A stretch of DNA of 64,000 nucleotides from Escherichia coli O127:H6 str. E2348/69 (GCF_000026545.1 NC_011601.1); one strand, 5' to 3'; positions 37,868 through 51,469 are shown, numbered from the stretch's first letter. Numbers and translations: made by a program. The notes: generated from the letters alone by a model not told the origin.

Positions 37868-37900
37868 AAAACGCCGACCAGTGGTCGGCGTTTTGCTTTT
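37868..37900 (+). terminator. Intrinsic terminator of the rpsF-priB-rpsR-rplI operon
   Basis: CGCCGACCA-g-TGGTCGGCG perfect 9-bp stem followed by TTTTGCTTTT. Confidence 0.85.
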
Positions 37901-38206
37901 AAGTGATAAAAACCGCAGAAACAGACGTTCCCTCCATAAATCTCTTGTTATTCCTTTTATAAAAAGTTCGCAGTACCCATACCTGGCCCCCAGCCTCGCC
38001 GCTGGTAGTTCGTGTCATGTTTTTTACGCGTAAAACACGACAAAAGCATCAATACAGCGATCGTCTCCCTTGTATGATAATAAAAACAATATGTTATATA
38101 TGAATGTGCTGTTATTTTATTGTTTTTATATATAAAAGGATAAAATATCATCACTTTCGTAATCTTGAACGCTTTGCAGGTGCGTTCAATCCAATAAATG
38201 CTAATA

Positions 38207-38227
38207 TTATGGCTATCATAGCCATAA
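38207..38227. promoter_or_regulatory. Perfect 21-bp palindrome, candidate operator upstream of the HipB-like gene
   Basis: TTATGGCTAT-C-ATAGCCATAA (10-bp arms, 1-bp centre) 20 bp upstream of ORF start 38248; flanked by two ~24-bp near-identical direct repeats (38132-38155 and 38223-38246) containing TAAAAT. Confidence 0.5.
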
Positions 38228-38247
38228 AAAGATAAAATATTATCACT

Positions 38248-38727
38248 ATGGGTAAAAAAACAGCACCGTTACTCCCTTATACGAATCAGATGCTTAGTGA
38301 ATTTGGTGAGCGGCTGAAACTTGCTCGTTTACGACGCAGGCTTACCGCAAAGCAAGTTGCTGAACGTGCTGGGATGTCGCCAATAACATTGCGCTCTCTG
38401 GAGTCAGGAAGTGCAGGGGTCACGATAGGGGCATATTTGTCTGTGATGCAGGTTTTGGGCCTGGAAACGGATTTAAATAAGCTTGCAGCTGAAGACGACT
38501 TAGGGCGTCAGCTCCAGGATTCCCGTTTGATTAAAAAAAGAGGGCTTTCTCGTTCATCAGGTAAAAATGAAGAAGGTATTCAGACAGACCCTTTTCAAAC
38601 GAGGTATGAGAAAGAAGGTTTACTCACCACGGATTTAACAGCACTGGCAGAAGGCTCAACGCCATCTATTACAGGAGAAACATCAACCTCTCTTGCAGCA
38701 CTATTAAAACCGATAAAAAACCGTTAA
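38248..38727 (+). CDS. HipB-like Xre-family HTH protein with long low-complexity C-terminal extension (candidate antitoxin/regulator)
   Basis: 159-aa ORF; [44 protein letters not shown]; start uncertain (alternative ATG at 38290); immediately upstream of HipA-like ORFs. Confidence 0.7.
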
Positions 38728-38740
38728 AAGGAAATTAATT

Positions 38741-39001
38741 ATGGCATTAATCGGAGTGTATGCGGATTGGGAAGGCCTGGATGGTCCGGAGCGGATTGGT
38801 TATTTACACAGTCGCCGCACTCGGACGCGTGAGATATTTGAGTTTGAGTACGATAAAAAGGCGCTTGCAGATCCTTCACTTAATTTCATTCAGTTAGATC
38901 CTGAAATAATGTTGTATGAGGGAGCACAGTACCCAATTCCTCCAAAGGATAAATTTGGTGCATTTAGTGATTCCTGCCCGGATCGTTGGGGCGTATGCTA
39001 A
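38741..39001 (+). CDS. HipA N-terminal-subdomain-like ORF (HipS-like), or 5' part of a frameshifted hipA-family gene
   Basis: 86-aa ORF ending FSDSCPDRWGVC*; resembles HipA N-subdomain; overlaps the next ORF by 16 nt in another frame. Confidence 0.6.
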   Translation: MALIGVYADWEGLDGPERIGYLHSRRTRTREIFEFEYDKKALADPSLNFIQLDPEIMLYEGAQYPIPPKDKFGAFSDSCPDRWGVC

Positions 39002-40008
39002 TGAAGCGTCGTTTTGAGAGGGATATTCGAGACGGGTTATGTGATAAAGACTCCCACCTTTATGAGTCTGATTATCTACTAGGTGTTCATGATCTTTATC
39101 GGGTTGGGGCTCTTCGATACAAACGTGAAGACGCTGGAGAGTTTCTTGATAATCGCATTGATGTTGCAGCCCCACCATTTACCGAAATAGCGAGTCTGGA
39201 AAGGGCTAGCCGGGCAATTGAAGAAGATCCTGATAATAAAGAGCTAATGGGGCAAAAATGGTTAAGAATGCTAATCGCTCCGGGGGGATCATTAGGGGGG
39301 GCACGTCCGAAAGCCAGTGTTGTTGATGAAGCTGGGCATCTCTACATCGCTAAATTTCCCAGTGTAAAAGATGAGTATGATGTTGGTGGATGGGAAATGG
39401 TCGTTAATGCACTTGCTGTTGGCTGTGGACTGAATGTTGCACCTGCTCAGGCGCATAAATTTGCCAGCAATTACCATTGTTTTATGGTTCGTCGTTTTGA
39501 CCGCACTAATGCGGGAAGGCGTCTGCATTTTGCTTCGGCTATGACACTAACCAGGCATCAGGATGGTGAAGATGCCTCTACAGGTGTGAGTTATCTGGAA
39601 TTAGCAGATGTTCTTATCAGGCATGGCGCGCAGACTAATACTGATCTTAAGGAACTCTGGTCCAGGATTGTTTTTAATATTCTTGTTTCTAATACCGATG
39701 ACCATTTACGTAATCATGGATATATCTTGATACCGGGAAAAGGTTGGCGGCTTTCTGAGGCATATGATTTGAATCCTGTTGCCAGGTCTGACGGTCTAAA
39801 ACTCAATATTACAGAAAATGATAATGCACTTGATTTGGAATTAGCTCGAGAAGTTGCGGAGTATTTTCGACTTGGTTTGACAGAAGCAGATGACATTATT
39901 GCTAATTTTAGAGGGATTGTCAGTCAGTGGCGAATCATTGCCGAGCGTCTTCGATTACCTGGTCGTGAGCAAGAGTTAATGGCAGAGGCGTTCAGGGGGG
40001 CAATTTAG
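38986..40008 (+). CDS. HipA-family Ser/Thr protein kinase core (HipT-like toxin candidate)
   Basis: 340-aa ORF (TTG at 38986; in-frame ATGs at 38995, 39001); Gly-rich loop PGGSLGGARPK, catalytic-loop-like SNTDDHLRNHG, AYDLNP motif, corresponding to HipA SVAGAQEK / DGHAKN / YDIIS. Confidence 0.7.
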   Translation: MGRMLMKRRFERDIRDGLCDKDSHLYESDYLLGVHDLYRVGALRYKREDAGEFLDNRIDVAAPPFTEIASLERASRAIEEDPDNKELMGQKWLRMLIAPGGSLGGARPKASVVDEAGHLYIAKFPSVKDEYDVGGWEMVVNALAVGCGLNVAPAQAHKFASNYHCFMVRRFDRTNAGRRLHFASAMTLTRHQDGEDASTGVSYLELADVLIRHGAQTNTDLKELWSRIVFNILVSNTDDHLRNHGYILIPGKGWRLSEAYDLNPVARSDGLKLNITENDNALDLELAREVAEYFRLGLTEADDIIANFRGIVSQWRIIAERLRLPGREQELMAEAFRGAI

Positions 40009-40106
40009 AATAGTTATTTTGATATATTCGCTAAATCATAAATTTGCGAAGCAATGCCAGTAGATACTGAACGTTTTGGAAGAGACGTTTAATTTATGAG
40101 AAAAAT

Positions 40107-40139
40107 AGAAACGCTACAAAGCTAAATTATAGCGTTTCT
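40107..40139. terminator. Candidate bidirectional terminator between convergent HipT-like gene and MFS transporter gene
   Basis: 9-bp inverted repeat AGAAACGCT ... AGCGTTTCT with 15-nt loop, A/T-rich flanks. Confidence 0.45.
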
Positions 40140-40150
40140 ATGTAAAATAA

Positions 40151-41428
40151 TTAGCTTGTCGCTAACTGTACTTGTGGTTCTTCGTCTTTAACTTTGATAA
40201 GCATCCACAGCGCAATGGCGCCAATAATGTCAAAGAAAGCCAGGGCAATAAAGAACGGCGCGAAGCCAATAATGTGAACGAATGCCCCGATAAACAGGTT
40301 GAAAATCAACTGACCGCTCCATGCACAGGCTCCTGCCATACCCACAGCGGTAGCTACTTCGTCTTTTTTGAATAGGTCACCGCCCAGAGTTGCTGCAACA
40401 GTAGAAAGACATTGATGCGAGAATGCGCCAATGCTAATCAGTAATACGGCGATGTAGGGATTTTCGACAATACTCACCAGACCAATCGTCATCATAATGA
40501 CGGCTGCAATAGTGAAGGTAATTCTTCGTGAGTTAATTAAACTCACGCCGCGATCGTGGAAGAACTTCGCGACAAAACCACTGGCTAAACAGCCGAGATC
40601 GCCCAGCAGGAAAGGCAGCCAGACGAACATGGCAATTTCTTTCAGGCTAAAATGCAGCGTTTCGACGAAGAAAATCGGTACCCAGAAGTTAATGGTTCCC
40701 CATGCCGGGTCAGCGAGAAAACGCGCGATGCCAATCCCCCAGAAATTACGTTGGCTGAGGATATGCTTGATTGACGTTTTTTCTTTCTTATCTGTTTTAA
40801 GATGCTGTTCTTGCCCAGACTCAATATAGTGGCGCTCTTCATCAGAAAGGCGTTTAGCATCTTTTGGATCTTTATAACAAAAGAACCAAAATAAAGCCGC
40901 GAGTAAAGCAAGGCTACCTGAGACAATAAACGCAAATTGCCAGCTATGAAACATAATGCACCAGGCAATCAACGGTGGAGCAAGCATCGCGCCGAGTGAG
41001 GTGCCCATATTGAAAACACCTGTCGCCACGCCACGCTCTTTTGCCGGGAACCATGTTGATGCGGTTTTTACACCCGCAGGAATTGCCGATGCTTCGCTGA
41101 AACCCATCAGGGCGCGCATAAATGCCAGACCTGACCATGTTCCTGTCAAGGCATGCCCCATTGTCGCCAGGCCCCAGATTGCGGCACATATCGCAAAACT
41201 TAACTTCAGACCCACGGTATCAATAAAGAAGCCCATTATCGGTTGCCCCAATGTATAGGCCAACTGGAATGCACTGACAATCCATGAATATTGTTCTTTG
41301 GTTATTCCGGTTGTCTCCATAATCGTTGGAGCCGCAATACCTAACGCCGTTCTGTCCAGATAATTGATTACAGTGATAAAGCATACGAGGGCAATCATAT
41401 GCCATCGATAATTCTTTATTTTATTCAT
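40151..41428 (-). CDS. MFS transporter, anion:cation symporter (ACS) family (ExuT/GarP/DgoT-like organic-acid transporter)
   Basis: 425-aa ORF, ~12 TM segments, N-terminal YLDRTALGIAAP motif typical of ACS-family sugar-acid transporters. Confidence 0.8.
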   Translation of the reverse strand: MNKIKNYRWHMIALVCFITVINYLDRTALGIAAPTIMETTGITKEQYSWIVSAFQLAYTLGQPIMGFFIDTVGLKLSFAICAAIWGLATMGHALTGTWSGLAFMRALMGFSEASAIPAGVKTASTWFPAKERGVATGVFNMGTSLGAMLAPPLIAWCIMFHSWQFAFIVSGSLALLAALFWFFCYKDPKDAKRLSDEERHYIESGQEQHLKTDKKEKTSIKHILSQRNFWGIGIARFLADPAWGTINFWVPIFFVETLHFSLKEIAMFVWLPFLLGDLGCLASGFVAKFFHDRGVSLINSRRITFTIAAVIMMTIGLVSIVENPYIAVLLISIGAFSHQCLSTVAATLGGDLFKKDEVATAVGMAGACAWSGQLIFNLFIGAFVHIIGFAPFFIALAFFDIIGAIALWMLIKVKDEEPQVQLATS

Positions 41429-41520
41429 TTTTAAACCTTTTAATTATATTAATAAACCCTGGTTATTGGTATTTCCATGTAATAGGCAATAAAAATCAGG
41501 TACAGAGGAAATATTGAAAA

Positions 41521-43593
41521 TTATTGTGTGTAAATGTCTCCCTTTAAAAAGTCTGGCCAGTTTTTTTCAAAGTAAATACCGTTAATACACGGTTGAATAC
41601 GTAAAGACTTTACTTCGGTAATAAAAGAACCTTGCGAATATTGAATTGTTAATTTGTGATTTTTGTCTTCAGCGAGTTCAGAGCGAAAACGCCATTCTTC
41701 TTTTGCGCCGCGACGAGTTTGTGGTAGGCATTTGCCTTGTGGATCAATAACCATACGCGCCCCACGGCTACCACCACCAGCATCAATATAATGCGTTAAT
41801 TGTGTTAATACCGCGGCAGAAGTCAGCGCCATATGCCGCCACATAAACAGCTCGGCAACTTCACCCACATGTTTGATTGCCAATCCATGCCGTTGCACAA
41901 ATTCACTCAATAGCAGGGCATCACGAGTGGCGCGTCGGACTTTATCGGCATGGCAAATAAATCCCGCATGGTCAGACATTCGTGCCTGAATTTTTTCTCT
42001 CACAACCGACAACGGCATCCCGGTCCCGTTATCGTGCGCCTGAGTAATGATCTCTCTTATAGAAGCCAGTGCCGGAGCTGCCAGCTGTGCAATATCTCCA
42101 TCAATATTCCGCTTTTGCGTGCAACCAATAAAGCGCGCCAGACGAACAGCAAAAACCTGCCCGGCATTCAACGCCGCGCCGCCAGGTCGGGTGACGCCGT
42201 GTGTGCCAGCAACTTCCCCCACCGCAAAACAACCGGGCAGAGATGTTTGTCCCCAGATATCGACTTCAATGCCGCCATTCATGTGCTGATTATTCATGGC
42301 AAACTGCAATGGCTGCGTGATGAGATCGTAACCGTGCATCTTATACAGCGAGATAGACAGAGGATTCATTCGTTGCAGGCGTTCGATGGGCGATGGTGCC
42401 AGAGCGTCGTTATTTTCCAGATACGTGCGAACGTCGTCGTCCAGTCGATCTAATGAGAACGGCAGGTCACCCGGCACAGGTTCAGGATTGCGATTGAAAT
42501 CCATAAATACCTGACGCCCTGATTGCTGCTCTTGCGCCACCGCCATATCTAACAAGCTGGAGCCAAAATCCATTACCCGCGTGGCGTGGAATGGCCACTG
42601 ATAGCCTTTACGGAAGATGTTTGAAGCCAACTCCTGGGTGGTGCGATAGTAATCTGCGAGGAAGTTATACTCGTTGCCCCCAGCATCCACGGAATAGATA
42701 TATGGGATCACCTGTACATAGGTGCCGGACAAATTCCACGGAAACGTGCTGCGCGGTGTGCCGATACCAAACTGGCTTTCAGTCAGATTCGTTAACGTCA
42801 GACCTTCCTCCAGCGCCAGCCCCAGCGAGCCGAAACATTTGTGTGGATACACACTGTCGCGATAAAGCTCGCCAGGCCCGCCTGTTGCCAGTACCACATT
42901 GGGTGCAGTCACAATTGCCAGCCCCCATGGGTTATGGGCGCGATGACCGGTCGCGAGGATTGCCCCCGCCACACGGTCTTCACCGTTTTCGTCACGCTGA
43001 TGCAGCAGTTTAATCACTGTTGCACTGGTCAACATTGGGATAGCAAGACGCTGTACTTCTTCCAGCAGCACTTTCACCATTAACCTTGAGGTACGCGGCC
43101 CACACGAGGTTGCACGCCCGGCTTCGTCGTGGTCGGTTTGATAACGAAGAATCGCGCCATAGCGATCTTCCGGTAATTCCAGACCAAGATATTGCAACCC
43201 GCCAAGAGTGTGCAGAGAACCTACCGCTTCAACATAAGCGGTGTCGTGATCCATCGCCCCACCGCTCGCCAGTGCCTCTGCCAGTTTGGCGAAGTTGTCG
43301 CCGTTGCCCGCGGTAGCGGCGGTAAACAGTGTTTGTTTATCAGAGCCAGAACATGCCGACGTCCCCATATATAACCCGGCGGTGGCGATTAACACATTTT
43401 GCTGGCGGCGTTTAAGTTCCACAGCTGCACGCAGCCCGGCTGCACCACTGCCGACTACCAGGGCATCTGTTTTCCAGAGTGGGTAATCAACACCGTCTAC
43501 CGTGACAACCCATGCGGGGTCTGCCTGTGCAAAACCCTTTGGGAAAGTAACGTGCGTCAGCGCATCAAGGATGGTGTCATCAAGCTGACTCAT
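41521..43593 (-). CDS. FAD-binding oxidoreductase (fumarate reductase/succinate dehydrogenase flavoprotein-like superfamily)
   Basis: 690-aa ORF with Rossmann dinucleotide motif ALVVGSGAAGLRAAVEL near N-terminus; start codon overlaps upstream gene stop (ATGA). Confidence 0.7.
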   Translation of the reverse strand: MSQLDDTILDALTHVTFPKGFAQADPAWVVTVDGVDYPLWKTDALVVGSGAAGLRAAVELKRRQQNVLIATAGLYMGTSACSGSDKQTLFTAATAGNGDNFAKLAEALASGGAMDHDTAYVEAVGSLHTLGGLQYLGLELPEDRYGAILRYQTDHDEAGRATSCGPRTSRLMVKVLLEEVQRLAIPMLTSATVIKLLHQRDENGEDRVAGAILATGHRAHNPWGLAIVTAPNVVLATGGPGELYRDSVYPHKCFGSLGLALEEGLTLTNLTESQFGIGTPRSTFPWNLSGTYVQVIPYIYSVDAGGNEYNFLADYYRTTQELASNIFRKGYQWPFHATRVMDFGSSLLDMAVAQEQQSGRQVFMDFNRNPEPVPGDLPFSLDRLDDDVRTYLENNDALAPSPIERLQRMNPLSISLYKMHGYDLITQPLQFAMNNQHMNGGIEVDIWGQTSLPGCFAVGEVAGTHGVTRPGGAALNAGQVFAVRLARFIGCTQKRNIDGDIAQLAAPALASIREIITQAHDNGTGMPLSVVREKIQARMSDHAGFICHADKVRRATRDALLLSEFVQRHGLAIKHVGEVAELFMWRHMALTSAAVLTQLTHYIDAGGGSRGARMVIDPQGKCLPQTRRGAKEEWRFRSELAEDKNHKLTIQYSQGSFITEVKSLRIQPCINGIYFEKNWPDFLKGDIYTQ

Positions 43594-45131
43594 GCATCCT
43601 CCATCGGCGTAAACAGGCTGCTTTCCATCAGACGTGGGTGCCTGATAATCGGACGGAAGGCCATGAATGGCAGAATGTCGCGCTCAATCTCTACGCCAGG
43701 GGCGATCTCAATTAATTCAACGCCTTCTGCCGTTAACTGGAATACCGCACGTTCGGTGATATACAGCACTTCCTGACCGCTTTGCTGTGCGTAGGCGGCG
43801 CTAAAGGTGATTTTTTCCACCAGGGCAACCAATTTAGGGATTTGACCTGACTGGGCGATATGCAAGCCATCTGGCGTTACATCAATCTTGCTGCCTTTGG
43901 CGTCGAACGTACCGCAAAACACCACTTTACGGGCGTTTTGTGCAATTTCGAGAAATCCGCCGGGGCCAATGAGATTGCCATTAAGATGGGATACGTTGAC
44001 GTTACCGTACCGATCCATCTCTCCCATGCCGAGGAAGGTGATATCGATACCGCCGCCACTGTAGAATTCGAATTGATCGAGTGATGGAATAATGGCATCG
44101 GCGTTACGGGCGCAGCCGAACAGAGCATCATCCAGCATCATGCCGTTATGTACACCCTGTTCTACACTCAGCCACAAACTTTGATAAGGCACGCCTTCGC
44201 GCAGCGCAACCCCAGGAATACCGCCGGGAATACCAAAGCCAAAGTTGGTTGAAGCGCCTGCCACCAGTTCCCGCGCTGCCCGACGGGCAATCAGGCGACG
44301 CACCGGATGACTAACCAGTTCAATAGCGTCGTTAGAACTTAGACGGCGATGTTGACCGCTGATGGTCAGGTCGTAACCGCCAAGATAGGTTTGCGGTTGT
44401 TCGCGGTGCTCAACGATGCCATCGACCAGAATTCCTGGTAGCTTGACCCGACGTGGTTCAATGGTACCTGCTTCCAGCACATCGCGGACCTGTACGAACA
44501 CTTTGCCGCCGCTGTTGTGTGCTGCCAGCGCCATCGAATAGCTATCCATATAAATCGCTTCTTCTTCGAGGCTAACGTTGCCTCGTGGATCGGCATAAGT
44601 GCCACGCAAAATCGCGTAATCCACTTTGAAAGGGCGATAACGAAGTTTGGTCTCACCGTCGATTTCAATCAGTTCTACCAGGTCGTCGGTAGTGCATTCA
44701 TTCGACTTACCGCCGCCATTGCGTGGATCAACAAACGATCCCAGCCCAACGTGGGTAAAAAGCCCCGGACGTCCGGCACCGATCTCCCGCAGCAGTGCCT
44801 GAATTACGCCACCAGGGAAACAGTAGGCTTCAATAGCATTGCTTTTCACCAGTTCCTGCATCTTGGGCGACCAGGTAAAATGTCCGGCAATAATGCGTTT
44901 GAGCATTTCGGCGTGAGCAAAACGGTTAGTGCCTTTGCTGTCGCGATCGCCAATACCCAGCGAGTGGATTAATGTCAGATCGCGCGGGTGTCCGGTTTGC
45001 AGGAAACGCGCTTCAATGGCGGCCAGAATATGGTCAGCTTCCACCATACCGCCGCCGTTACCGCTAATGGCAATGGTTGCGCCGTCCTGAATTTGCGCCG
45101 CCAGTGTCTCGGCGGTTGATAACTTACGCAT
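43590..45131 (-). CDS. Family-I acyl-CoA:acetate/3-ketoacid CoA-transferase (fused alpha/beta, YdiF-like)
   Basis: 513-aa ORF; N-terminus MRKLSTAETLAAQIQDGATIAISGNGGG and overall layout resemble fused family-I CoA-transferases. Confidence 0.75.
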   Translation of the reverse strand: MRKLSTAETLAAQIQDGATIAISGNGGGMVEADHILAAIEARFLQTGHPRDLTLIHSLGIGDRDSKGTNRFAHAEMLKRIIAGHFTWSPKMQELVKSNAIEAYCFPGGVIQALLREIGAGRPGLFTHVGLGSFVDPRNGGGKSNECTTDDLVELIEIDGETKLRYRPFKVDYAILRGTYADPRGNVSLEEEAIYMDSYSMALAAHNSGGKVFVQVRDVLEAGTIEPRRVKLPGILVDGIVEHREQPQTYLGGYDLTISGQHRRLSSNDAIELVSHPVRRLIARRAARELVAGASTNFGFGIPGGIPGVALREGVPYQSLWLSVEQGVHNGMMLDDALFGCARNADAIIPSLDQFEFYSGGGIDITFLGMGEMDRYGNVNVSHLNGNLIGPGGFLEIAQNARKVVFCGTFDAKGSKIDVTPDGLHIAQSGQIPKLVALVEKITFSAAYAQQSGQEVLYITERAVFQLTAEGVELIEIAPGVEIERDILPFMAFRPIIRHPRLMESSLFTPMEDA

Positions 45132-45140
45132 ACAATTTCC

Positions 45141-45923
45141 TTATTGATTGTGGAAGCTCACGCCGGCTTTTTCGGCAAATGCGTGCGTCGCCTGTTGGCA
45201 ATCCTGAGTGGCGGACATTAATCCAGCCAGTAACTGGTGGGAGTAATCGGCGTGTTTATTTTCCAGCGCCAGAATCAGTTGCTTAATATGTGCCAGTGCC
45301 ACCGGACCACATTTTTCCAGCTGCGCTAACTGGTTCACCATCCAGCTTTCCACCTGTTCTTTTTCTACCACTTCATCAATTAAATTCGCTGTCTGAGCTT
45401 CCTGCGCCGTCAGGCGTTTACCCAGCATCAGCATCTGGCGACCGACCACCGGGCCAACCTGATTAAGCACGCGTTCAATGCCCATCCAGCCAGGCACCAT
45501 GCCGAGCATCACTTCCGGGTTAGAGAATTTCGCGCCGGGGCGAGCGATACGAATATCACAGCACAAGGCGAGTTCAATCCCACCGCCAATGGTATGACCG
45601 TTGAGATTTGCAACCGTTAATTGGGGTAAATTGCGCAGGCGATTAAAAACCTCGTTACCGCGTTTAATCCATTTTCTGCCCATATCTAATGGCGAATAGG
45701 CCGACCACGATTTAATATCGCCGCCCGCACAAAAGAATTTATCGCCGGTTGCCGTTAATTCGACTAATCGTAATGTGGTGTCGTTTTCAATTTCATTTAA
45801 ATAATGGTCGAGAGATTCGATCATTTCTTCATTAATAGCATGACATTTATCTTCACGGTTCAATGTCAGGCGGCAAGAAGCCGCCGCTCTGCTGAACAGA
45901 ACGGGTTGGTCATTCATGATCAT
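45141..45923 (-). CDS. Enoyl-CoA hydratase/isomerase (crotonase superfamily)
   Basis: 260-aa ORF with crotonase oxyanion-hole motifs FCAGGDIK and NGHTIGGG. Confidence 0.75.
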   Translation of the reverse strand: MIMNDQPVLFSRAAASCRLTLNREDKCHAINEEMIESLDHYLNEIENDTTLRLVELTATGDKFFCAGGDIKSWSAYSPLDMGRKWIKRGNEVFNRLRNLPQLTVANLNGHTIGGGIELALCCDIRIARPGAKFSNPEVMLGMVPGWMGIERVLNQVGPVVGRQMLMLGKRLTAQEAQTANLIDEVVEKEQVESWMVNQLAQLEKCGPVALAHIKQLILALENKHADYSHQLLAGLMSATQDCQQATHAFAEKAGVSFHNQ

Positions 45924-45926
45924 TCC

Positions 45927-46769
45927 TTAACAATAATGTGCGATGCGATCGACGCTAATATCCAGCGTGCTGTTAATATCTTTCTGCCACCAGTACGGTG
46001 AGAATATTTCCAGTTCAATAGCGCCATTAAATCCGGCGTTTTCAACCAGCCGACGAATTGACGGAATATTGATGACACCATCTCCCGGCATTCCACGGTC
46101 ATTGACCAGATCGGTGGTCGGCACTAACCAGTCGGAAACATGAAACGCGAGGATGCGTTTTCCGGCACGCAGGATCTGACTGGCGAGATCCGGGTCCCAC
46201 CAGACATGGTAGACATCTACCGCCACGCCGAGGCCAAATTCGCCATCGGGATCGAGTTCATCACACCAGTCCAGCGCCTGACGTAACGTGCACAGACAAG
46301 AACGATCGGCAGCAGTCATCGGGTGCAGTGGCTCCAGTGCAATTGGCACGCCGACCTCTTTCGAATGTGGCAGCAACTGGCGAATCCCTTGTTTCACCTG
46401 TTCCCGTGCTTCGTACAGATCTTTTGTTCCCATTGGCAGACCGCCAACCACCTGCATATAACAGGCGGCGTTCAGTACAGCGGCGTCGTCCAGCGCCCGG
46501 CGGTTATCGTCAATCGCCAGTTTGCGCTCCGCCAGCGTCGGTGCGGTGTAGTAGGTGCTACGGCACAAACCGGAAACGTTCATGTTACTGGCAGCAAGCT
46601 GGCGGGCGATTTGCTGGAGATCTTCACTCTGCAACTCCCTGCGCCAGGGGGCAATCGCGCCAATACCGCGTGCGGCGCAGGCATCAATAATGGCGGGTAG
46701 CGGCGTTTTATAGCCCAGTGTCGCGGTATTGATACTGAATAAATCCGGGCGTTGTAACAGATCTCTCAT
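45927..46769 (-). CDS. Sugar phosphate isomerase/epimerase-like TIM-barrel protein (xylose-isomerase-like fold)
   Basis: 280-aa ORF; pattern resembles AP-endonuclease-2 / xylose-isomerase-like TIM-barrel proteins (weak, by eye). Confidence 0.55.
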   Translation of the reverse strand: MRDLLQRPDLFSINTATLGYKTPLPAIIDACAARGIGAIAPWRRELQSEDLQQIARQLAASNMNVSGLCRSTYYTAPTLAERKLAIDDNRRALDDAAVLNAACYMQVVGGLPMGTKDLYEAREQVKQGIRQLLPHSKEVGVPIALEPLHPMTAADRSCLCTLRQALDWCDELDPDGEFGLGVAVDVYHVWWDPDLASQILRAGKRILAFHVSDWLVPTTDLVNDRGMPGDGVINIPSIRRLVENAGFNGAIELEIFSPYWWQKDINSTLDISVDRIAHYC

Positions 46770-46778
46770 GATTCAGCC

Positions 46779-47570
46779 TCAGAAGCGCGGCATACTTAAG
46801 CCGCCGTCGATGGCGACCGCCTGACCACAGGTGTAAATCAGTTTACCTTCCGCCATCGCGCGGACAGTGGAAGCAATATCAGCCGGATAACCCCAACGTC
46901 CCCACGGCACCAGACCTTTGGCAATCAGTTCGTCGTAATAGGCCGTTGCCGGAATAGTCATATCGGTTTTGATGAGACCAGGACGCACTTCATATACGCC
47001 AATTTGTTCATTACAAAGGCGAGCAGCAAACAGACGAGCAGCGGCAGAGACGGCAGTTTTGGCAATGGTATATTCGCCGCGATTCATCGCCAGCATGATG
47101 GCGTTGATGGAACTGACAAAAATAATCGAGCGGTGCGGCAGTTCTGCTTCCGGTTTCGGCTGTGCCAGTAAGCGCTTACTGAATGCCTGAGCAAGGAAGA
47201 ACGGTGCGCGGGTGTTAATGGCAATATTTTGGTCGAAGCTGTCTGGTTCGAGGTCGAGAAGGTCACCGCGTTTTTTCACTGAAATGCCTGCGTTGTTGAG
47301 CAGGCAGTCCAGACGTCCCCACTGGTTTTGCGCTGCGTCGAGCATCTCTTCATGCAGGGAGAGATCGCCCACATCAGCAGGGAAGCAAATCACTTCCACG
47401 CCTTCCGCCAGACATTCTTGTTGTGTGGCATGTAATTTTTCTACGCTATCGGCATCCGGACGATCATTAATCAGCAGATTAAATCCGCCACGCGCAAGCT
47501 CCAGCGCACAGCCTTTTCCAATACCACGTGCGGCTCCGGTAATCACGGCAACAGGACGAGTGGATTTCAT
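46779..47570 (-). CDS. Short-chain dehydrogenase/reductase (SDR)
   Basis: 263-aa ORF with TGAARGIG cofactor motif, NNAG, catalytic YxxxK (YTIAK). Confidence 0.85.
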   Translation of the reverse strand: MKSTRPVAVITGAARGIGKGCALELARGGFNLLINDRPDADSVEKLHATQQECLAEGVEVICFPADVGDLSLHEEMLDAAQNQWGRLDCLLNNAGISVKKRGDLLDLEPDSFDQNIAINTRAPFFLAQAFSKRLLAQPKPEAELPHRSIIFVSSINAIMLAMNRGEYTIAKTAVSAAARLFAARLCNEQIGVYEVRPGLIKTDMTIPATAYYDELIAKGLVPWGRWGYPADIASTVRAMAEGKLIYTCGQAVAIDGGLSMPRF

Positions 47571-47783
47571 ACAATAGCTCTCTTTTTTTTGAATTTTGTT
47601 TCCTTAGTGATGATTAGCTTGCGACTGGAGGGTAAAAAGATCAACCATCTAGTTGGTTGATATGCGATGGCGATCACAGGACATTTGATAACCTGATGAA
47701 AGTACAAGTTTTTGCCCTTTTTTCTGAAGCTGAAATCAAATCAGGTTATGATAGTCACCACGAAGAGGTCGTGGGGAAGCGTT

Positions 47784-48431
47784 ATGTATCTTGATACCAG
47801 CAACGTACAGAGCCTGAAAGAAAAGCTGCTGTTATGCGCGGTTAATGAATTTGCCGAATATGGTTACGAAGGGGCCAGAGTCGATAATATCGTCAAGGCC
47901 GCGGGGTGCAGTAAACAGACGGTTTATCACCACTTTGGTAATAAAGAAAATTTATTTATCGAAGTACTGGAATATACCTGGAACGATATTCGACAAAAAG
48001 AAAAGGCCCTTGATTTCTCAGATCTTCCGCCACAGAAAGCCATTGAGAAAATAATCGATTTTACATGGGATTATTATATTTCTAATCCCTGGTTTTTAAA
48101 AATTGTGCATAGTGAAAATCAAAGTAAGGGTGTGCATTATGCAAAATCACAGCGTCTTTTAGAAATTAACCATGCGCACTTGCAGTTAATGGAATCCTTA
48201 TTGGATGAAGGGAAGAAACAAAATATTTTTAAGCCAGATATCGACCCATTGCAGGTGAATATTAATATTGCTGCGCTTGGGGGATATTATTTGATCAACC
48301 AGCATACGCTTGGCCTGGTTTATCACATCAGTATGGTTTCACCGCAGGCACTGGAAGCCAGACGTAAGGTCATCAAAGAGACAATCCTTAGCTGGCTTTT
48401 GGTTGACCCTTCATCTACCGCGCGCGAATAA
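47784..48431 (+). CDS. TetR/AcrR-family transcriptional regulator, divergent from the catabolic operon
   Basis: ORF 47712..48431; likely start ATG 47784 (MYLDTSN) preceded by GGGGAAG; Tet[32 protein letters not shown]. Confidence 0.8.
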
Positions 48432-49919: not shown

Positions 49920-51469
49920 CTGTCTCTTATACACAAATCCCCACCCGGGGATTTGTGATGTCTGTCAGTCTGCTTTAGGGGGACTCTTTCCATCCGGTAG
50001 TTTCCTTCCTCCCCGGCAGCGATTTTTTGAACTTTTTCCTCACCTGTTGATCTTCTCTTATATTTCATTTTCTTCGGGTCTGTTATGGTACTTTCTGATT
50101 GTTATTCATGGGCTAACGAGCAGTTTGGACATGCCCGTCTCGGTGATCCGCGTCGTACACGACGCCTTGTGTCACTGGCCTCTTCTCTCGCTCAGCATGC
50201 AGGTCTTTCTATTGTGAAATCATCCCAGTCCACTGCTCAGGTTGAAGGTGCGTACCGCCTGATACGTAACCCGTCTGTGTCCCCGCAAGCCATTGCCGAA
50301 GCCGGATTTACCGCCACTGTAAGGGCATGTGAGGCTCATCCGCTGCTCCTCGCGCTGGAAGACACCACCACCATTAACTTCAGTCACAGTACGGCATCTG
50401 ATGACCTGGGGAATACCACCACTAACCCGAAGACGCGCGGGCTGCTGGCTCACTCTGTCCTGATGTACGCCCCCGACAGCGCCCTGCCAGTCGGTCTTAT
50501 CGAACAGCAGCGCTGGAGTCGTGCCACGGACACCTACGGTGTTAAGCACCAGCGAAAAGAACGTCCCTATGAAGAAAAAGAAAGTTACCGCTGGCAGCAG
50601 GCTTCGGAGCGCATGGCCGAACGGCTGGGGGAGATACAGAAACGGGTAATCACTGTCTGTGACCGGGAAGCGGATATCTGGCATTACCTGCATTATAAAG
50701 TCAGCCACGGGCAGCGCTTCGTGGTGCGTGCAGCACAGAATCGCCGGCTGGAAGAAGCACCCGGCAAGCTCTTCGAACTGCCGGAAGTCCTGGCAACCGC
50801 GGGAAGCCACACGCTGAATGTGATGCAAAAAGGCGGGCGGGCAGCCCGCCAGGCCCGGATGTTCATCAGTTACAGCGAAGTCAGCATAAAAAATCCCGAC
50901 AACAGCGGCCAGGCGCTCCCGCTCACGTATGTCTGTTGCCGGGAGCAGGCAGAGGACGGCGCCTGCTGGCATCTGCTGACGTCAGAAAAAGTGGCGAGTG
51001 CCGCCGATGCGCGACGTATCGTCAGCCATTACGAGCGACGCTGGCTGATAGAGGAATACCACAAGGCGTGGAAAAGTGGTGGTACATGTGTGGAATCGCT
51101 GTGAATGCAGACCCGGGATAACCTCGAGCGCATGGTGGTTATCAAGGCGTTTATCGCGGTGCGGGTGCTGGGCCTGCGGCAGGGCGGTATCAGTGAAGAA
51201 ACACAAAATGACAGCTGTGAGAAAATACTGACGCCGACAGAGTGGAAACTGCTGTGGGTTAAGCTGGAAGGAAAACCGCTTCCGTCACAGATGCCGACAC
51301 TGAAATGGGCCTGTCTGAAACTGGCGAAACTGGGGCGATGGCATGACAGCAAACGCACCGGTCGCCCCGGTTGGGTAGTCATGTGGGATGGCTGGTTCAG
51401 ACTTCAGGATATGGTTGAGGGTTACCTGGTGATGAAGTCTCTTGATCAGGAGATCTGATCAAGAGACAG
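49920..51469 (+). mobile_element. IS50-like insertion sequence (IS4 family), ~1.55 kb, with terminal inverted repeats and ~9-bp flanking direct repeats
   Basis: Left end CTGTCTCTTATACACAAAT (49920-) and right end AGATCTGATCAAGAGACAG (-51469) match IS50 OE/IE-type ends; flanks CGAACCAG at 49912-49919 and 51470-51477; internal transposase homologous to Tn5 Tnp. Confidence 0.85.
50085..51458 (+). pseudogene. IS50-like DDE transposase interrupted by in-frame TGA (339-aa + 117-aa fragments)
   Basis: ORFs 50085..51104 and 51105..51458 share one frame, separated by TGA at 51102-51104; Tn5-Tnp-like motifs GDPRRT, ALEDTT, CDREADI, RWLIEEYHKAWK in the first part and DNLERMV / DSKRTG in the second. Confidence 0.8.

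Follow-up and report, generated by a model that had tools for sequence, protein, structure and literature searches.

A flavoprotein of the fumarate reductase fold with an apparently rebuilt active site, and its possible role in sugar-acid catabolism, in Escherichia coli

We have analysed a flavoprotein gene of Escherichia coli O127:H6 strain E2348/69, carried in a window of 64,000 nucleotides (nt) that is 100% identical to that strain. The gene lies at 41521..43593 on the minus strand, encodes 690 amino acids (aa) and is annotated in RefSeq as WP_000080318.1 under the label 'FAD-dependent oxidoreductase' (FAD, flavin adenine dinucleotide). Its product is built on the fumarate reductase scaffold with a remodelled active site, and does not amount to a new kind of system. 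Comparison of sequences indicates that it is more than a longer form of the fumarate reductase subunit FrdA, because of the six classic catalytic or substrate-binding residues five have been exchanged in every one of the 73 family members examined. The protein appears to represent a distinct, uncharacterised clade of the FrdA/SdhA/NadB superfamily. Its neighbours point to catabolism of sugar acids of a hexuronate-like kind, a context not considered in a first-pass annotation of the same DNA. With a confidence that falls somewhat short of even, we propose that the flavoprotein is a soluble FAD oxidoreductase whose reaction takes place beside the carboxylate of a hexuronate-like acid, on a route to a 2-keto(-3-deoxy) acid.

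Active site and family of the flavoprotein

The open reading frame (ORF) runs for 690 codons from an ATG, as the first-pass annotation had stated without giving a strand, and the gene is supported by its RefSeq annotation, by its presence in 3136 of 5426 complete E. coli genomes (~58%), by full-length homologues and by a confidently predicted fold. The Rossmann motif proposed earlier is present as VVGSGAAG at residues 46-53, and FAD_binding_2 (PF00890) matches residues 43-475 at an E of 2e-26. This is the sole Pfam match of the protein; Succ_DH_flav_C, a second domain suggested for searching, gave none at E <= 0.01. In length the protein exceeds E. coli FrdA (602 aa) by 88 aa, in line with an early estimate of ~100 aa, and NadB (540 aa) by 150 aa. 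The extra length looks like the sum of an N-terminal extension of ~40 aa, a larger capping domain (~276-415) and a beta-rich C-terminal tail (~605-690).

Structure prediction upheld the placement in the fumarate reductase, succinate dehydrogenase and aspartate oxidase superfamily. An AlphaFold2 model made from 42 diverse homologues was confident (pLDDT 91.9, pTM 0.93), and its top Foldseek matches were FrdA, SdhA, NadB and the A subunit of adenylylsulfate/phosphoadenylylsulfate (APS/PAPS) reductase, AprA, with E values of ~1e-31 to 1e-24 at 15-19% identity; against FrdA/SdhA the E value was ~1e-31 and the query-normalised TM-score ~0.65. Sequence matches in the PDB were weak (E ~1e-8). In a comparison with NCBIfam, for which the best 25 of 39 matches were listed, no cut-off was reached among the matches listed. 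The best was TfrA (123 bits vs 718), followed by NadB and SdhA/FrdA, and membership by score failed both for NadB (TIGR00551, 99 bits vs 453) and for FrdA/SdhA (TIGR01812, PRK09231, sdhA_forward and others, 44-82 bits vs cut-offs of 567-932). Nothing among these listed matches, all far below cut-off, assigns the protein to an unrelated, well-characterised family.

The active site was mapped by aligning the family profile to NadB and by profile-profile alignment to E. coli FrdA, NadB and SdhA. The numbering of FrdA R287 is taken from the literature. The aligned positions are as follows:

Covalent-FAD histidine, FrdA H44 and SdhA H45 (flavin attachment): none in the flavoprotein, which has a GSDKQT insertion at this site in the alignment
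FrdA H232 / NadB H244 (histidine of the HPT motif, substrate binding): aligned with G276
FrdA T244, E245 and R248 of TEGxRGE (proton relay): WNLSG, with S289 at the R248 position and no aligned counterpart of T244 or E245
FrdA R287 / NadB R290 (catalytic proton donor): S345, in an invariant SS motif that opens the equivalent helix
FrdA H355 / NadB H351 (substrate binding): Q436, followed by an invariant H437
FrdA R390 / NadB R386 (carboxylate binding): R469, kept

The segment aligned with the site of covalent FAD attachment, GTSACSGSDKQT, contains no His. Both the replacement residues and R469 are invariant across 73 full-length family members from many phyla. Among the NadB active-site residues H244, R290, H351 and R386 only R386 is conserved, and from the Motif I and III arginines and proton channel of Fcc3 (R402, E378, R381 and R544) only the counterpart of R544 is kept. 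The family profile aligns residues ~415-600 to the helical domain of FrdA/NadB. About 60 residues are invariant in the family, including these motifs:

GSDKQT, residues 83-88
YxTDHD, residues 151-156
NLTESQFG, residues 269-276
WNLSGTY, residues 286-292
KGYQWP, residues 329-334
SS..D, residues 345-349
QHxNGG, residues 436-441
R469
SRG, residues 609-611

The flavoprotein thus shares with NadB, FrdA, SdhA and TfrA its FAD, capping and helical domains, an N-terminal GxGxxG and a C-terminal GE..G..G.R containing the carboxylate arginine, and with NadB a predicted non-covalent FAD and the absence of partner subunits. It differs from NadB and FrdA in its low identity (15-19%), in the GSDKQT insertion, in a larger capping domain with invariant W286, N287, Y292, K329, Y331, W333 and R405, and in an extra C-terminal domain with the invariant SRG; its context, moreover, is that of sugar-acid catabolism and not of respiration or NAD synthesis. 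The highest hydropathy over a 19-aa window is 1.11, with no predicted membrane segment, and none of its eight cysteines falls in an invariant column. With neither partner subunits nor transmembrane segments nor conserved cysteines in evidence, the earlier view of a soluble, stand-alone protein stands, and the product is best described as a putative soluble single subunit with non-covalent FAD, in which the carboxylate grip has been retained and the active site rebuilt.

Among 1.84 billion scanned cluster representatives (clusters at 50% identity), 3143 matched at E <= 0.001, of which 415 reached E < 1e-30. The best matches are mostly full length (~600-700 aa), with 34-55% identity to the query, and full-length homologues of 35-59% identity are spread over many phyla, the family ranging from gut Proteobacteria to Planctomycetes and Rhizobia in gut- and plant-associated hosts. 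The traits of this 'GSDKQT' clade, a length of ~650-700 aa, the ~60 invariant residues and a neighbouring short-chain dehydrogenase/reductase (SDR) of the PRK12745 type, are all found in the query, which is itself the reference sequence. Homologues are named in databases 'FAD-binding protein' or 'succinate dehydrogenase/fumarate reductase flavoprotein subunit'; as a label for family members, 'succinate dehydrogenase flavoprotein subunit' is wrong.

Two subfamilies can be distinguished. Group 1 proteins are 50-85% identical to the E. coli protein and have P285 and R328; group 2 proteins are <43% identical to it and have R285 and L328. Residues 285 and 328 (window ~42739-42741 and 42610-42612, respectively) covary near-perfectly between the subfamilies, and this swap suggests that a single arginine is conserved in space, the two positions probably lying near each other in the folded protein. 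Because so many residues are invariant at an overall identity of 36%, both groups may be expected to catalyse the same reaction.

Neighbouring genes and the class of substrate

The flavoprotein gene of E2348/69 is one of six minus-strand genes with gaps of -4 to +92 nt, in the order SDR, triosephosphate isomerase (TIM) barrel protein, crotonase, coenzyme A (CoA) transferase, flavoprotein and major facilitator superfamily (MFS) transporter. The flavoprotein ATG lies within the GAG GAT GCA TGA of the CoA-transferase gene, giving the 4-nt overlap ATGA that had been noted before. The remaining five genes are:

46779..47570, minus: PRK12745-type SDR, 263 aa (NCBIfam PRK12745, 420 bits vs a cut-off of 250)
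45927..46769, minus: xylose-isomerase-like TIM barrel, 280 aa (Pfam AP_endonuc_2, E 1e-37)
45141..45923 (RefSeq start 45917), minus: crotonase-family enoyl-CoA hydratase (Pfam ECH_1, E 5e-46)
43590..45131, minus: fused alpha/beta family-I CoA-transferase, YdiF/FadX-like, 513 aa (Pfam CoA_trans)
40151..41428, minus: MFS transporter of the anion:cation symporter (ACS) type, last gene of the operon (Pfam/NCBIfam)

The TIM barrel belongs to the family of 3QC0, 3JU2 (SMc04130) and 7VPF (PDB sequence matches at E 1e-85), has weak NCBIfam matches to IolO, Hyi and OtnI, and is predicted to be an isomerase, epimerase or dehydratase. As a dehydroshikimate dehydratase, IolE or KduI it was rejected, no specific similarity to these being seen in NCBIfam or the PDB. 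Both catalytic glutamates of the crotonase are present, in GGGIELA and NPEV; its best NCBIfam match is a short-chain enoyl-CoA hydratase, below cut-off, and the CoA-transferase matches the staphylococcal FadX model at E 1.7e-113, also below cut-off. The MFS transporter is nearest to the D-galactonate transporter subfamily. As had been claimed, no iron-sulfur (Fe-S) or membrane-anchor gene is found in the operon or its flanks, and such genes are likewise absent from the related loci surveyed.

That survey of genomic context covered 80 species-level loci, with adjacency of the SDR counted over 72. An SDR lies no more than six genes from the flavoprotein in 30 of the 72 and is the partner conserved across phyla. 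All the flavoprotein-adjacent SDRs tested against PRK12745 (loci L007, L064, L081, L083 and L084) exceeded its cut-off of 250, with 297-341 bits, and they come from Aminicenantes, Succinatimonas, Lentisphaeria, Phycisphaerae and Bacteroidia. The name '3-ketoacyl-ACP reductase' attached to PRK12745 is probably a misnomer.

Group 1 loci differ in their further content. The order in Alphaproteobacteria is sugar-type ATP-binding cassette (ABC) transporter, two glucose-methanol-choline (GMC) oxidoreductases, Dabb, LacI, a Gfo enzyme resembling levoglucosan dehydrogenase (PDB 6A3F, E 1.5e-74; 310 bits in NCBIfam, below cut-off), flavoprotein and a KdgK-like PfkB kinase. Other Enterobacterales, Verrucomicrobia, Lentisphaeria and a betaproteobacterium have a regulator (TetR or other), SDR, Gfo, TIM barrel, with or without an MFS transporter, and the flavoprotein, while the gut anaerobe Succinatimonas has a minimal set of TetR, SDR, flavoprotein, TIM barrel and a transporter of the tripartite ATP-independent periplasmic (TRAP) type. 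Members are frequent in the aerobes Rhizobium, Devosia and Rhodobacteraceae, where GMC and Gfo dehydrogenases surround them.

Group 2 loci mostly belong to anaerobes and typically run from a gene of the old yellow enzyme (OYE) family with an Fe-S motif, with or without a GltD-like domain, through an SDR, a 2-keto-3-deoxy-6-phosphogluconate (KDPG)-type aldolase and sometimes a BNR_4 protein to the flavoprotein and a PfkB kinase. Among 29 such loci the OYE gene adjoins the flavoprotein gene in 14, and a KDPG-type aldolase occurs in 12. The Fe-S motif of these OYE partners is of the FadH/enoate-reductase type. In L089 the OYE and flavoprotein genes overlap by 4 nt, and after them come an SDR, the TctABC system for carboxylate transport, a Gfo enzyme, a D-2-hydroxyacid dehydrogenase and an aldolase of the HpcH type. 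A metagenomic protein of 1084 aa (P0149) is a natural fusion of OYE (Oxidored_FMN) and flavoprotein. This fusion, together with the adjacency or 4-nt overlap in the L089 and L090 loci, indicates a probable physical redox partnership in group 2.

Several downstream genes recur. KdgK-like PfkB kinases (E 2.3e-77 to the KdgK model, below cut-off) stand directly downstream of the flavoprotein in nine of the ten loci with this kinase type, with a 4-nt overlap in L031; a second type of kinase resembles the kinase half of fusion proteins with 2-keto-4-hydroxyglutarate (KHG)/KDPG aldolase. The aldolases are of the KDPG/KHG and HpcH types, and a D-2-hydroxyacid dehydrogenase adjoins the flavoprotein in L038, L062 and L089. 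A 2-keto acid is the likely product, because these recurrent kinases and aldolases act on 2-keto(-3-deoxy) and 4-hydroxy-2-oxo acids.

Nearly all transporters beside family genes are of carboxylate type, which fits the kept R469. They include MFS proteins of the ACS type (E. coli, Klebsiella and Salmonella), TRAP systems (at least six loci, namely L004, L011, L032, L036, L055 and L084) and TctABC. The ABC systems depart from this pattern, those of Alphaproteobacteria being of sugar type and that in L091 of branched-chain type. The TRAP binding protein found at the operon in some E. coli strains has its best matches in 4OVR, 4X8R, 4N8Y, 4N15, 4N91 and 4MIJ/4MHF (E 1e-71 to 1e-60), and that of Succinatimonas matches the same PDB set at E ~1e-53 to 1e-47. 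Binders of other ligands, namely 2-keto-3-deoxygluconate (7BBR), isethionate and sialic acid, fell well behind. Of these proteins 4N8Y binds galacturonate, 4X8R and 4N91 bind glucuronate, Bpro_3107 (4MHF) binds both and 4N15 has served as a template of the glucuronate type (PMC11668362, PMC7660916). Because the TRAP binding proteins match hexuronate binders, the imported compound is most likely a hexuronate or a close ring-shaped polyhydroxy-carboxylate.

CoA genes occur near the flavoprotein in only about six of the 80 loci, and both the CoA-transferase and the crotonase look to be of short-chain type in NCBIfam. Besides the enterobacterial operon, such genes are seen in these loci:

L011 (Betaproteobacteria bacterium MS502-56): butyryl/acryloyl-CoA-type acyl-CoA dehydrogenase with electron-transfer flavoprotein (ETF) alpha and beta
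L069 (Desulfobacterales): two acyl-CoA dehydrogenases, MaoC dehydratases and a sugar-acid dehydratase of the IlvD/Edd type
L042 and L031 (Rhodobacter, Devosia): aldehyde dehydrogenase

The flavoprotein has no Acyl-CoA_dh domain in Pfam, and since such loci bring companions of their own it is unlikely to be the acyl-CoA dehydrogenase of the CoA module. The order in L011 (1-11100) is CoA-transferase, crotonase, TRAP DctPQM, acyl-CoA dehydrogenase, ETF beta, ETF alpha, TIM barrel and flavoprotein; it is the only locus in which ETF adjoins the flavoprotein, and ETF may be an alternative electron partner there.

Possible reactions of the flavoprotein

On the simplest reading of these contexts, an imported acid is turned into a 2-keto acid by the flavoprotein, the SDR and a third enzyme that varies between loci (TIM barrel, Gfo or OYE). 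In the route that we propose for E. coli, a divergently encoded TetR repressor would hold the operon off, and a glucuronate-like (hexuronate-type) acid would be imported by the MFS transporter, or by TRAP in other strains. The flavoprotein would then carry out a two-electron redox step at the carbon adjoining the carboxylate, in our preferred version an oxidation, either of a 2-hydroxy acid to a 2-keto acid (as NadB acts at C-alpha) or by desaturation between C-alpha and C-beta. Carbonyl reduction and isomerization would fall to the PRK12745 SDR and the TIM-barrel isomerase or dehydratase, and the resulting 2-keto(-3-deoxy) sugar acid would be cleaved via a chromosomal kinase and aldolase of the KdgK/Eda type. 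Reduced FAD might pass its electrons to quinone or a different acceptor in E. coli, and to the OYE+FeS flavoprotein in group 2 anaerobes, where the Fe-S OYE could reduce an enone elsewhere on the molecule and so render the overall conversion redox-neutral. The crotonase and the short-chain CoA-transferase would be accessory, serving to salvage a small hydroxy-acid by-product or to permit beta-elimination on a CoA ester. We infer in this scheme the identity of the substrate, the direction of the reaction, the electron acceptor and the role of the CoA module.

An oxidative role is favoured because NadB is among the nearest relatives, because the gene directly precedes a 2-keto-acid kinase, and because the family is common in aerobes among other dehydrogenases. 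It is favoured too because the E. coli protein has no electron-input module and a dehydrogenase can hand its electrons to quinone; several single-subunit flavoprotein dehydrogenases of E. coli pass electrons directly to quinone.

Known pathways offer partial parallels. The hexuronate routes that end in 2-keto-3-deoxygluconate (KDG) proceed through UxaC-UxuB-UxuA or through KduI-KduD-KdgK-KdgA. The flavoprotein loci resemble them in their hexuronate-type transporters, in an SDR at the place of KduD or UxuB, in KdgK- and Eda-like genes downstream and in a TIM barrel from the broad fold class of UxuA and sugar isomerases, whereas the known routes have no flavoprotein, CoA-transferase or crotonase. 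In the Pseudomonas kguEKTD operon a LacI regulator accompanies a TIM-barrel 'epimerase', a PfkB kinase whose substrate is a 2-keto-aldonate, an MFS transporter of the ACS type and a D-2-hydroxyacid dehydrogenase. This 2-ketogluconate operon would seem to have the same set of parts as the flavoprotein loci. In Pseudomonas, however, the 2-keto acid is made by a periplasmic, membrane-bound gluconate 2-dehydrogenase of the GMC type, whereas the flavoprotein here is cytoplasmic and FrdA-like.

Several observations weigh against the proposed route. The direction of the reaction is beyond the reach of sequence alone, and the active-site mapping of the capping domain depends on an alignment to FrdA that has low sequence similarity and modest reliability. 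The downstream kinases and aldolases score below the curated KdgK and Eda cut-offs. The Brenneria transporter is a PcaK-like aromatic-acid:H+ symporter of the MFS (369 bits), and the group 2 locus L091 combines its branched-chain-type ABC system with a URO-D-like gene. The CoA-transferase and crotonase are without an obvious place in a sugar-acid route. Searches of the literature by protein accession, by ytfA/yjfZ, by annotation terms and by TIM-barrel PDB codes found nothing on the operon. Finally, glucuronate and galacturonate are already served in E. coli by the UxaC route, and therefore the substrate may be another uronate or an aldonate, or the routes may be redundant.

A further point against it, and part of the support for its strongest rival, comes from characterized relatives, as the soluble FAD_binding_2 enzymes on monocarboxylates described in one study are enoate reductases, acting on urocanate, acrylate and methacrylate, and OYE-like domains serve as electron-input modules that feed electrons from NADH in the fumarate reductase (FRD) of Klebsiella pneumoniae and the acrylate reductase (ARD) of Vibrio harveyi (bioRxiv 10.1101/2022.01.20.477176). 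With the same pairing of FAD_binding_2 and OYE-family domains in group 2, and a comparable monocarboxylate substrate (bioRxiv 10.1101/2022.01.20.477176), our flavoprotein might be an enoate reductase that reduces the C=C bond of a free alpha,beta-unsaturated carboxylate with electrons from a separate donor, a reading supported by the OYE adjacency, natural fusion and 4-nt overlap in the family and by the retained carboxylate-binding arginine. Candidate substrates would be a 4,5-unsaturated uronate, shikimate, dehydroshikimate or an enoate formed from a 3-hydroxy acid by the CoA-transferase and crotonase; enzymes of these two kinds can make an enoate from a 3-hydroxy acid, as CaiB and CaiD do for carnitine, which counts in favour of this role. 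We consider it unlikely, albeit a serious contender. Neither the E. coli polypeptide nor its operon includes an OYE or FMN_bind module or any other electron-input domain or partner, and the residues of the Motif III proton channel are missing. In the profile alignment, invariant Ser stands where these reductases have their proton-delivering Arg and their relay Glu/Arg, and no relay Glu aligns. The OYE partners in this family, moreover, are not of the NADH-dehydrogenase type with a bridging FMN_bind; they carry the Fe-S motif of enzymes that are ene-reductases themselves. The clusters of aerobic Rhizobium, Devosia and Rhodobacteraceae, with their dehydrogenases and 2-keto-acid kinase, also fit oxidation better. 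Of the enoate or acyl-CoA reductase role suggested in the first-pass annotation, then, the free-acid half is a live alternative, while the acyl-CoA half is disfavoured by the lack of CoA enzymes in most of the 80 loci.

That acyl-CoA role, in which the CoA-transferase activates an acid, the flavoprotein desaturates or saturates the resulting acyl-CoA, the crotonase hydrates that and the SDR oxidizes the 3-hydroxyacyl-CoA in a module resembling beta-oxidation, would accord with the gene order SDR, TIM barrel, crotonase, CoA-transferase and flavoprotein shared by E. coli, Klebsiella and Salmonella (the last two genes being translationally coupled), with the annotation of the SDR as a 3-ketoacyl reductase and with the two catalytic glutamates of the crotonase. 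We hold it to be quite improbable. CoA genes are rare beside the flavoprotein; none accompany the SDR, TIM barrel and flavoprotein of Succinatimonas, Brenneria, Pseudescherichia and Lentisphaeria; separate acyl-CoA dehydrogenases stand beside the flavoprotein in L011 (with ETF) and L069; the invariant R469 implies a free carboxylate; and to our knowledge no member of the FrdA/NadB fold acts on CoA esters. The carnitine (cai) and bile acid (bai) systems remove a hydroxyl group from a carboxylic acid by means of a CoA-transferase, a dehydratase, an SDR and flavoproteins, but those flavoproteins are of the acyl-CoA-dehydrogenase and OYE types and act on CoA esters, whereas the one studied here is FrdA-like, keeps its carboxylate arginine and in most loci has no CoA enzymes near it.

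A hydroaromatic or aromatic carboxylate of the quinate or shikimate kind is an improbable substrate, whose ring would be oxidized, dehydrated and reduced by the SDR, TIM barrel and flavoprotein, with dehydroxylation by the CoA module. The PcaK-like symporter of Brenneria favours such a compound, as do the acyl-CoA dehydrogenases of L011 and L069, whose second-best match is cyclohexane-1-carbonyl-CoA dehydrogenase, and the gut- and plant-associated hosts; quinate and shikimate, being shaped like pyranuronates, might also fit a binding protein of hexuronate type. Yet two independent TRAP binding proteins match hexuronate binders best, neither NCBIfam nor the PDB shows the TIM barrel to resemble dehydroshikimate dehydratases, and the recurrent KdgK-like kinases and KDPG/HpcH aldolases have no role in reduction of a ring acid. 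It is very improbable that the flavin undergoes no net redox change and that the protein is a dehydratase or isomerase such as a uronate 4,5-dehydratase or a replacement for KduI that feeds a KduD-like SDR. The loss of the proton-transfer residues of FRD alongside a kept carboxylate grip would suit this role, as would an SDR, kinase and aldolase that resemble KduD, KdgK and KdgA with no KduI seen in the surveyed loci, a three-enzyme operon without a visible electron acceptor in the strict anaerobe Succinatimonas, and the weak hydratase side activity of fumarate reductases. The FAD-binding motifs and flavin-proximal residues are, however, strictly conserved, and fusion or adjacency to an Fe-S flavoprotein argues for real electron transfer. 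Finally, a plain paralogue of fumarate reductase, succinate dehydrogenase or L-aspartate oxidase has next to no probability: FrdA, SdhA, NadB and TfrA are the best sequence and fold matches, but scores lie far below every curated cut-off, FrdB/C/D partners are absent, and His232, the Thr244/Glu245/Arg248 relay, Arg287 and His355 are lost in all family members.

We thus return to oxidation next to the carboxylate of a hexuronate-like acid as our preferred, if tentative, reading. A wider proposal, which we regard as doubtful, is that the flavoprotein and the PRK12745 SDR form the core of an unrecognized, multi-phylum route for uronic or aldonic acids, in which a remodelled fumarate reductase scaffold would make a 2-keto(-3-deoxy) acid without a classical dehydratase, wired to OYE in anaerobes and supplemented by a CoA-level step in Enterobacteriaceae.

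The operon in Escherichia coli and its relatives

The transporter at the end of the operon is polymorphic in complete E. coli genomes. The MFS allele was found in 1692 and a TRAP transporter (DctQMP) at the same position in 1481, which together approximate the 3136 flavoprotein-bearing genomes, so that TRAP is present in about half of the carriers. When the two alleles are compared (window 40151-41428 vs L004 11103-13946), the last ~77 codons of the flavoprotein gene also diverge. In Klebsiella oxytoca and Salmonella enterica the same operon is flanked by rplI and ytfB, and it is therefore an old locus of the Enterobacteriaceae and not a recent island. Klebsiella michiganensis M5al has an orthologue of 79% identity. 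A deoxyribonate cluster of Klebsiella michiganensis (PMC6365646) was considered and rejected as a different locus, with CoA-synthetase, hydroxyacyl-CoA dehydrogenase and thiolase.

E. coli K-12 MG1655 is without the operon. Homology ends just after rplI (window 37899) and restarts inside the TetR gene (48029), the ~10 kb in between (window 37900-48028) being replaced by yjfZ (K-12 locus L086, 1612-2693), and all that K-12 keeps of the TetR gene is its 3' 403 nt, as the pseudogene ytfA. This loss probably explains why the operon has escaped study.

Three further features accompany the operon in E2348/69:

47784..48431 (RefSeq start; longest ORF from 47712), plus: divergent TetR/AcrR regulator (TetR_N and TetR_C_29)
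47640..47661, no strand: 22-bp palindrome ATCAACCAnnnnnnTGGTTGAT in the intergenic region between the tetR and SDR genes
40105..40141, minus: terminator-like hairpin (15-bp stem, then a T run) shortly behind the MFS gene, a pattern match only

The palindrome has the form ATCAACCA...TGGTTGAT and is found at the same place in E. coli with the TRAP allele (L004) and in Salmonella (L088), while its exact pattern was not found in K. oxytoca; it is a candidate TetR operator. The hairpin is the probable end of the operon. A scan for promoters gave sites no more numerous than in shuffled sequence. Between rplI and the operon (38248-40008) lie a helix-turn-helix (HTH) gene (HipB-like) and a HipA-family toxin gene, both frameshifted pseudogenes in RefSeq, which share with the MFS gene a stretch of 43% GC, the enzyme genes having 51-54%. 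At 50085-51458, between fklB and cycA, an IS4-like ISEc13 transposase gene is inserted, which contains an internal stop and is a pseudogene in RefSeq.

The operon is carried by over half of complete E. coli genomes, among them that of the enteropathogenic E. coli (EPEC) strain E2348/69, by the Klebsiella oxytoca group and by some Salmonella. Assignment of its substrate would give a function to the flavoprotein family and to the PRK12745 family, and would show what the fumarate reductase fold does after losing its catalytic arginine and histidines. If the substrate is an ordinary uronate that is handled redundantly, the significance would be modest. Such work might alternatively point to a carbon source, from gut or plant, by which E. 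coli lineages differ, and a multi-phylum sugar-acid route, if true, would define a nutrient niche for E. coli pathotypes, Klebsiella oxytoca and some Salmonella that is absent in K-12.

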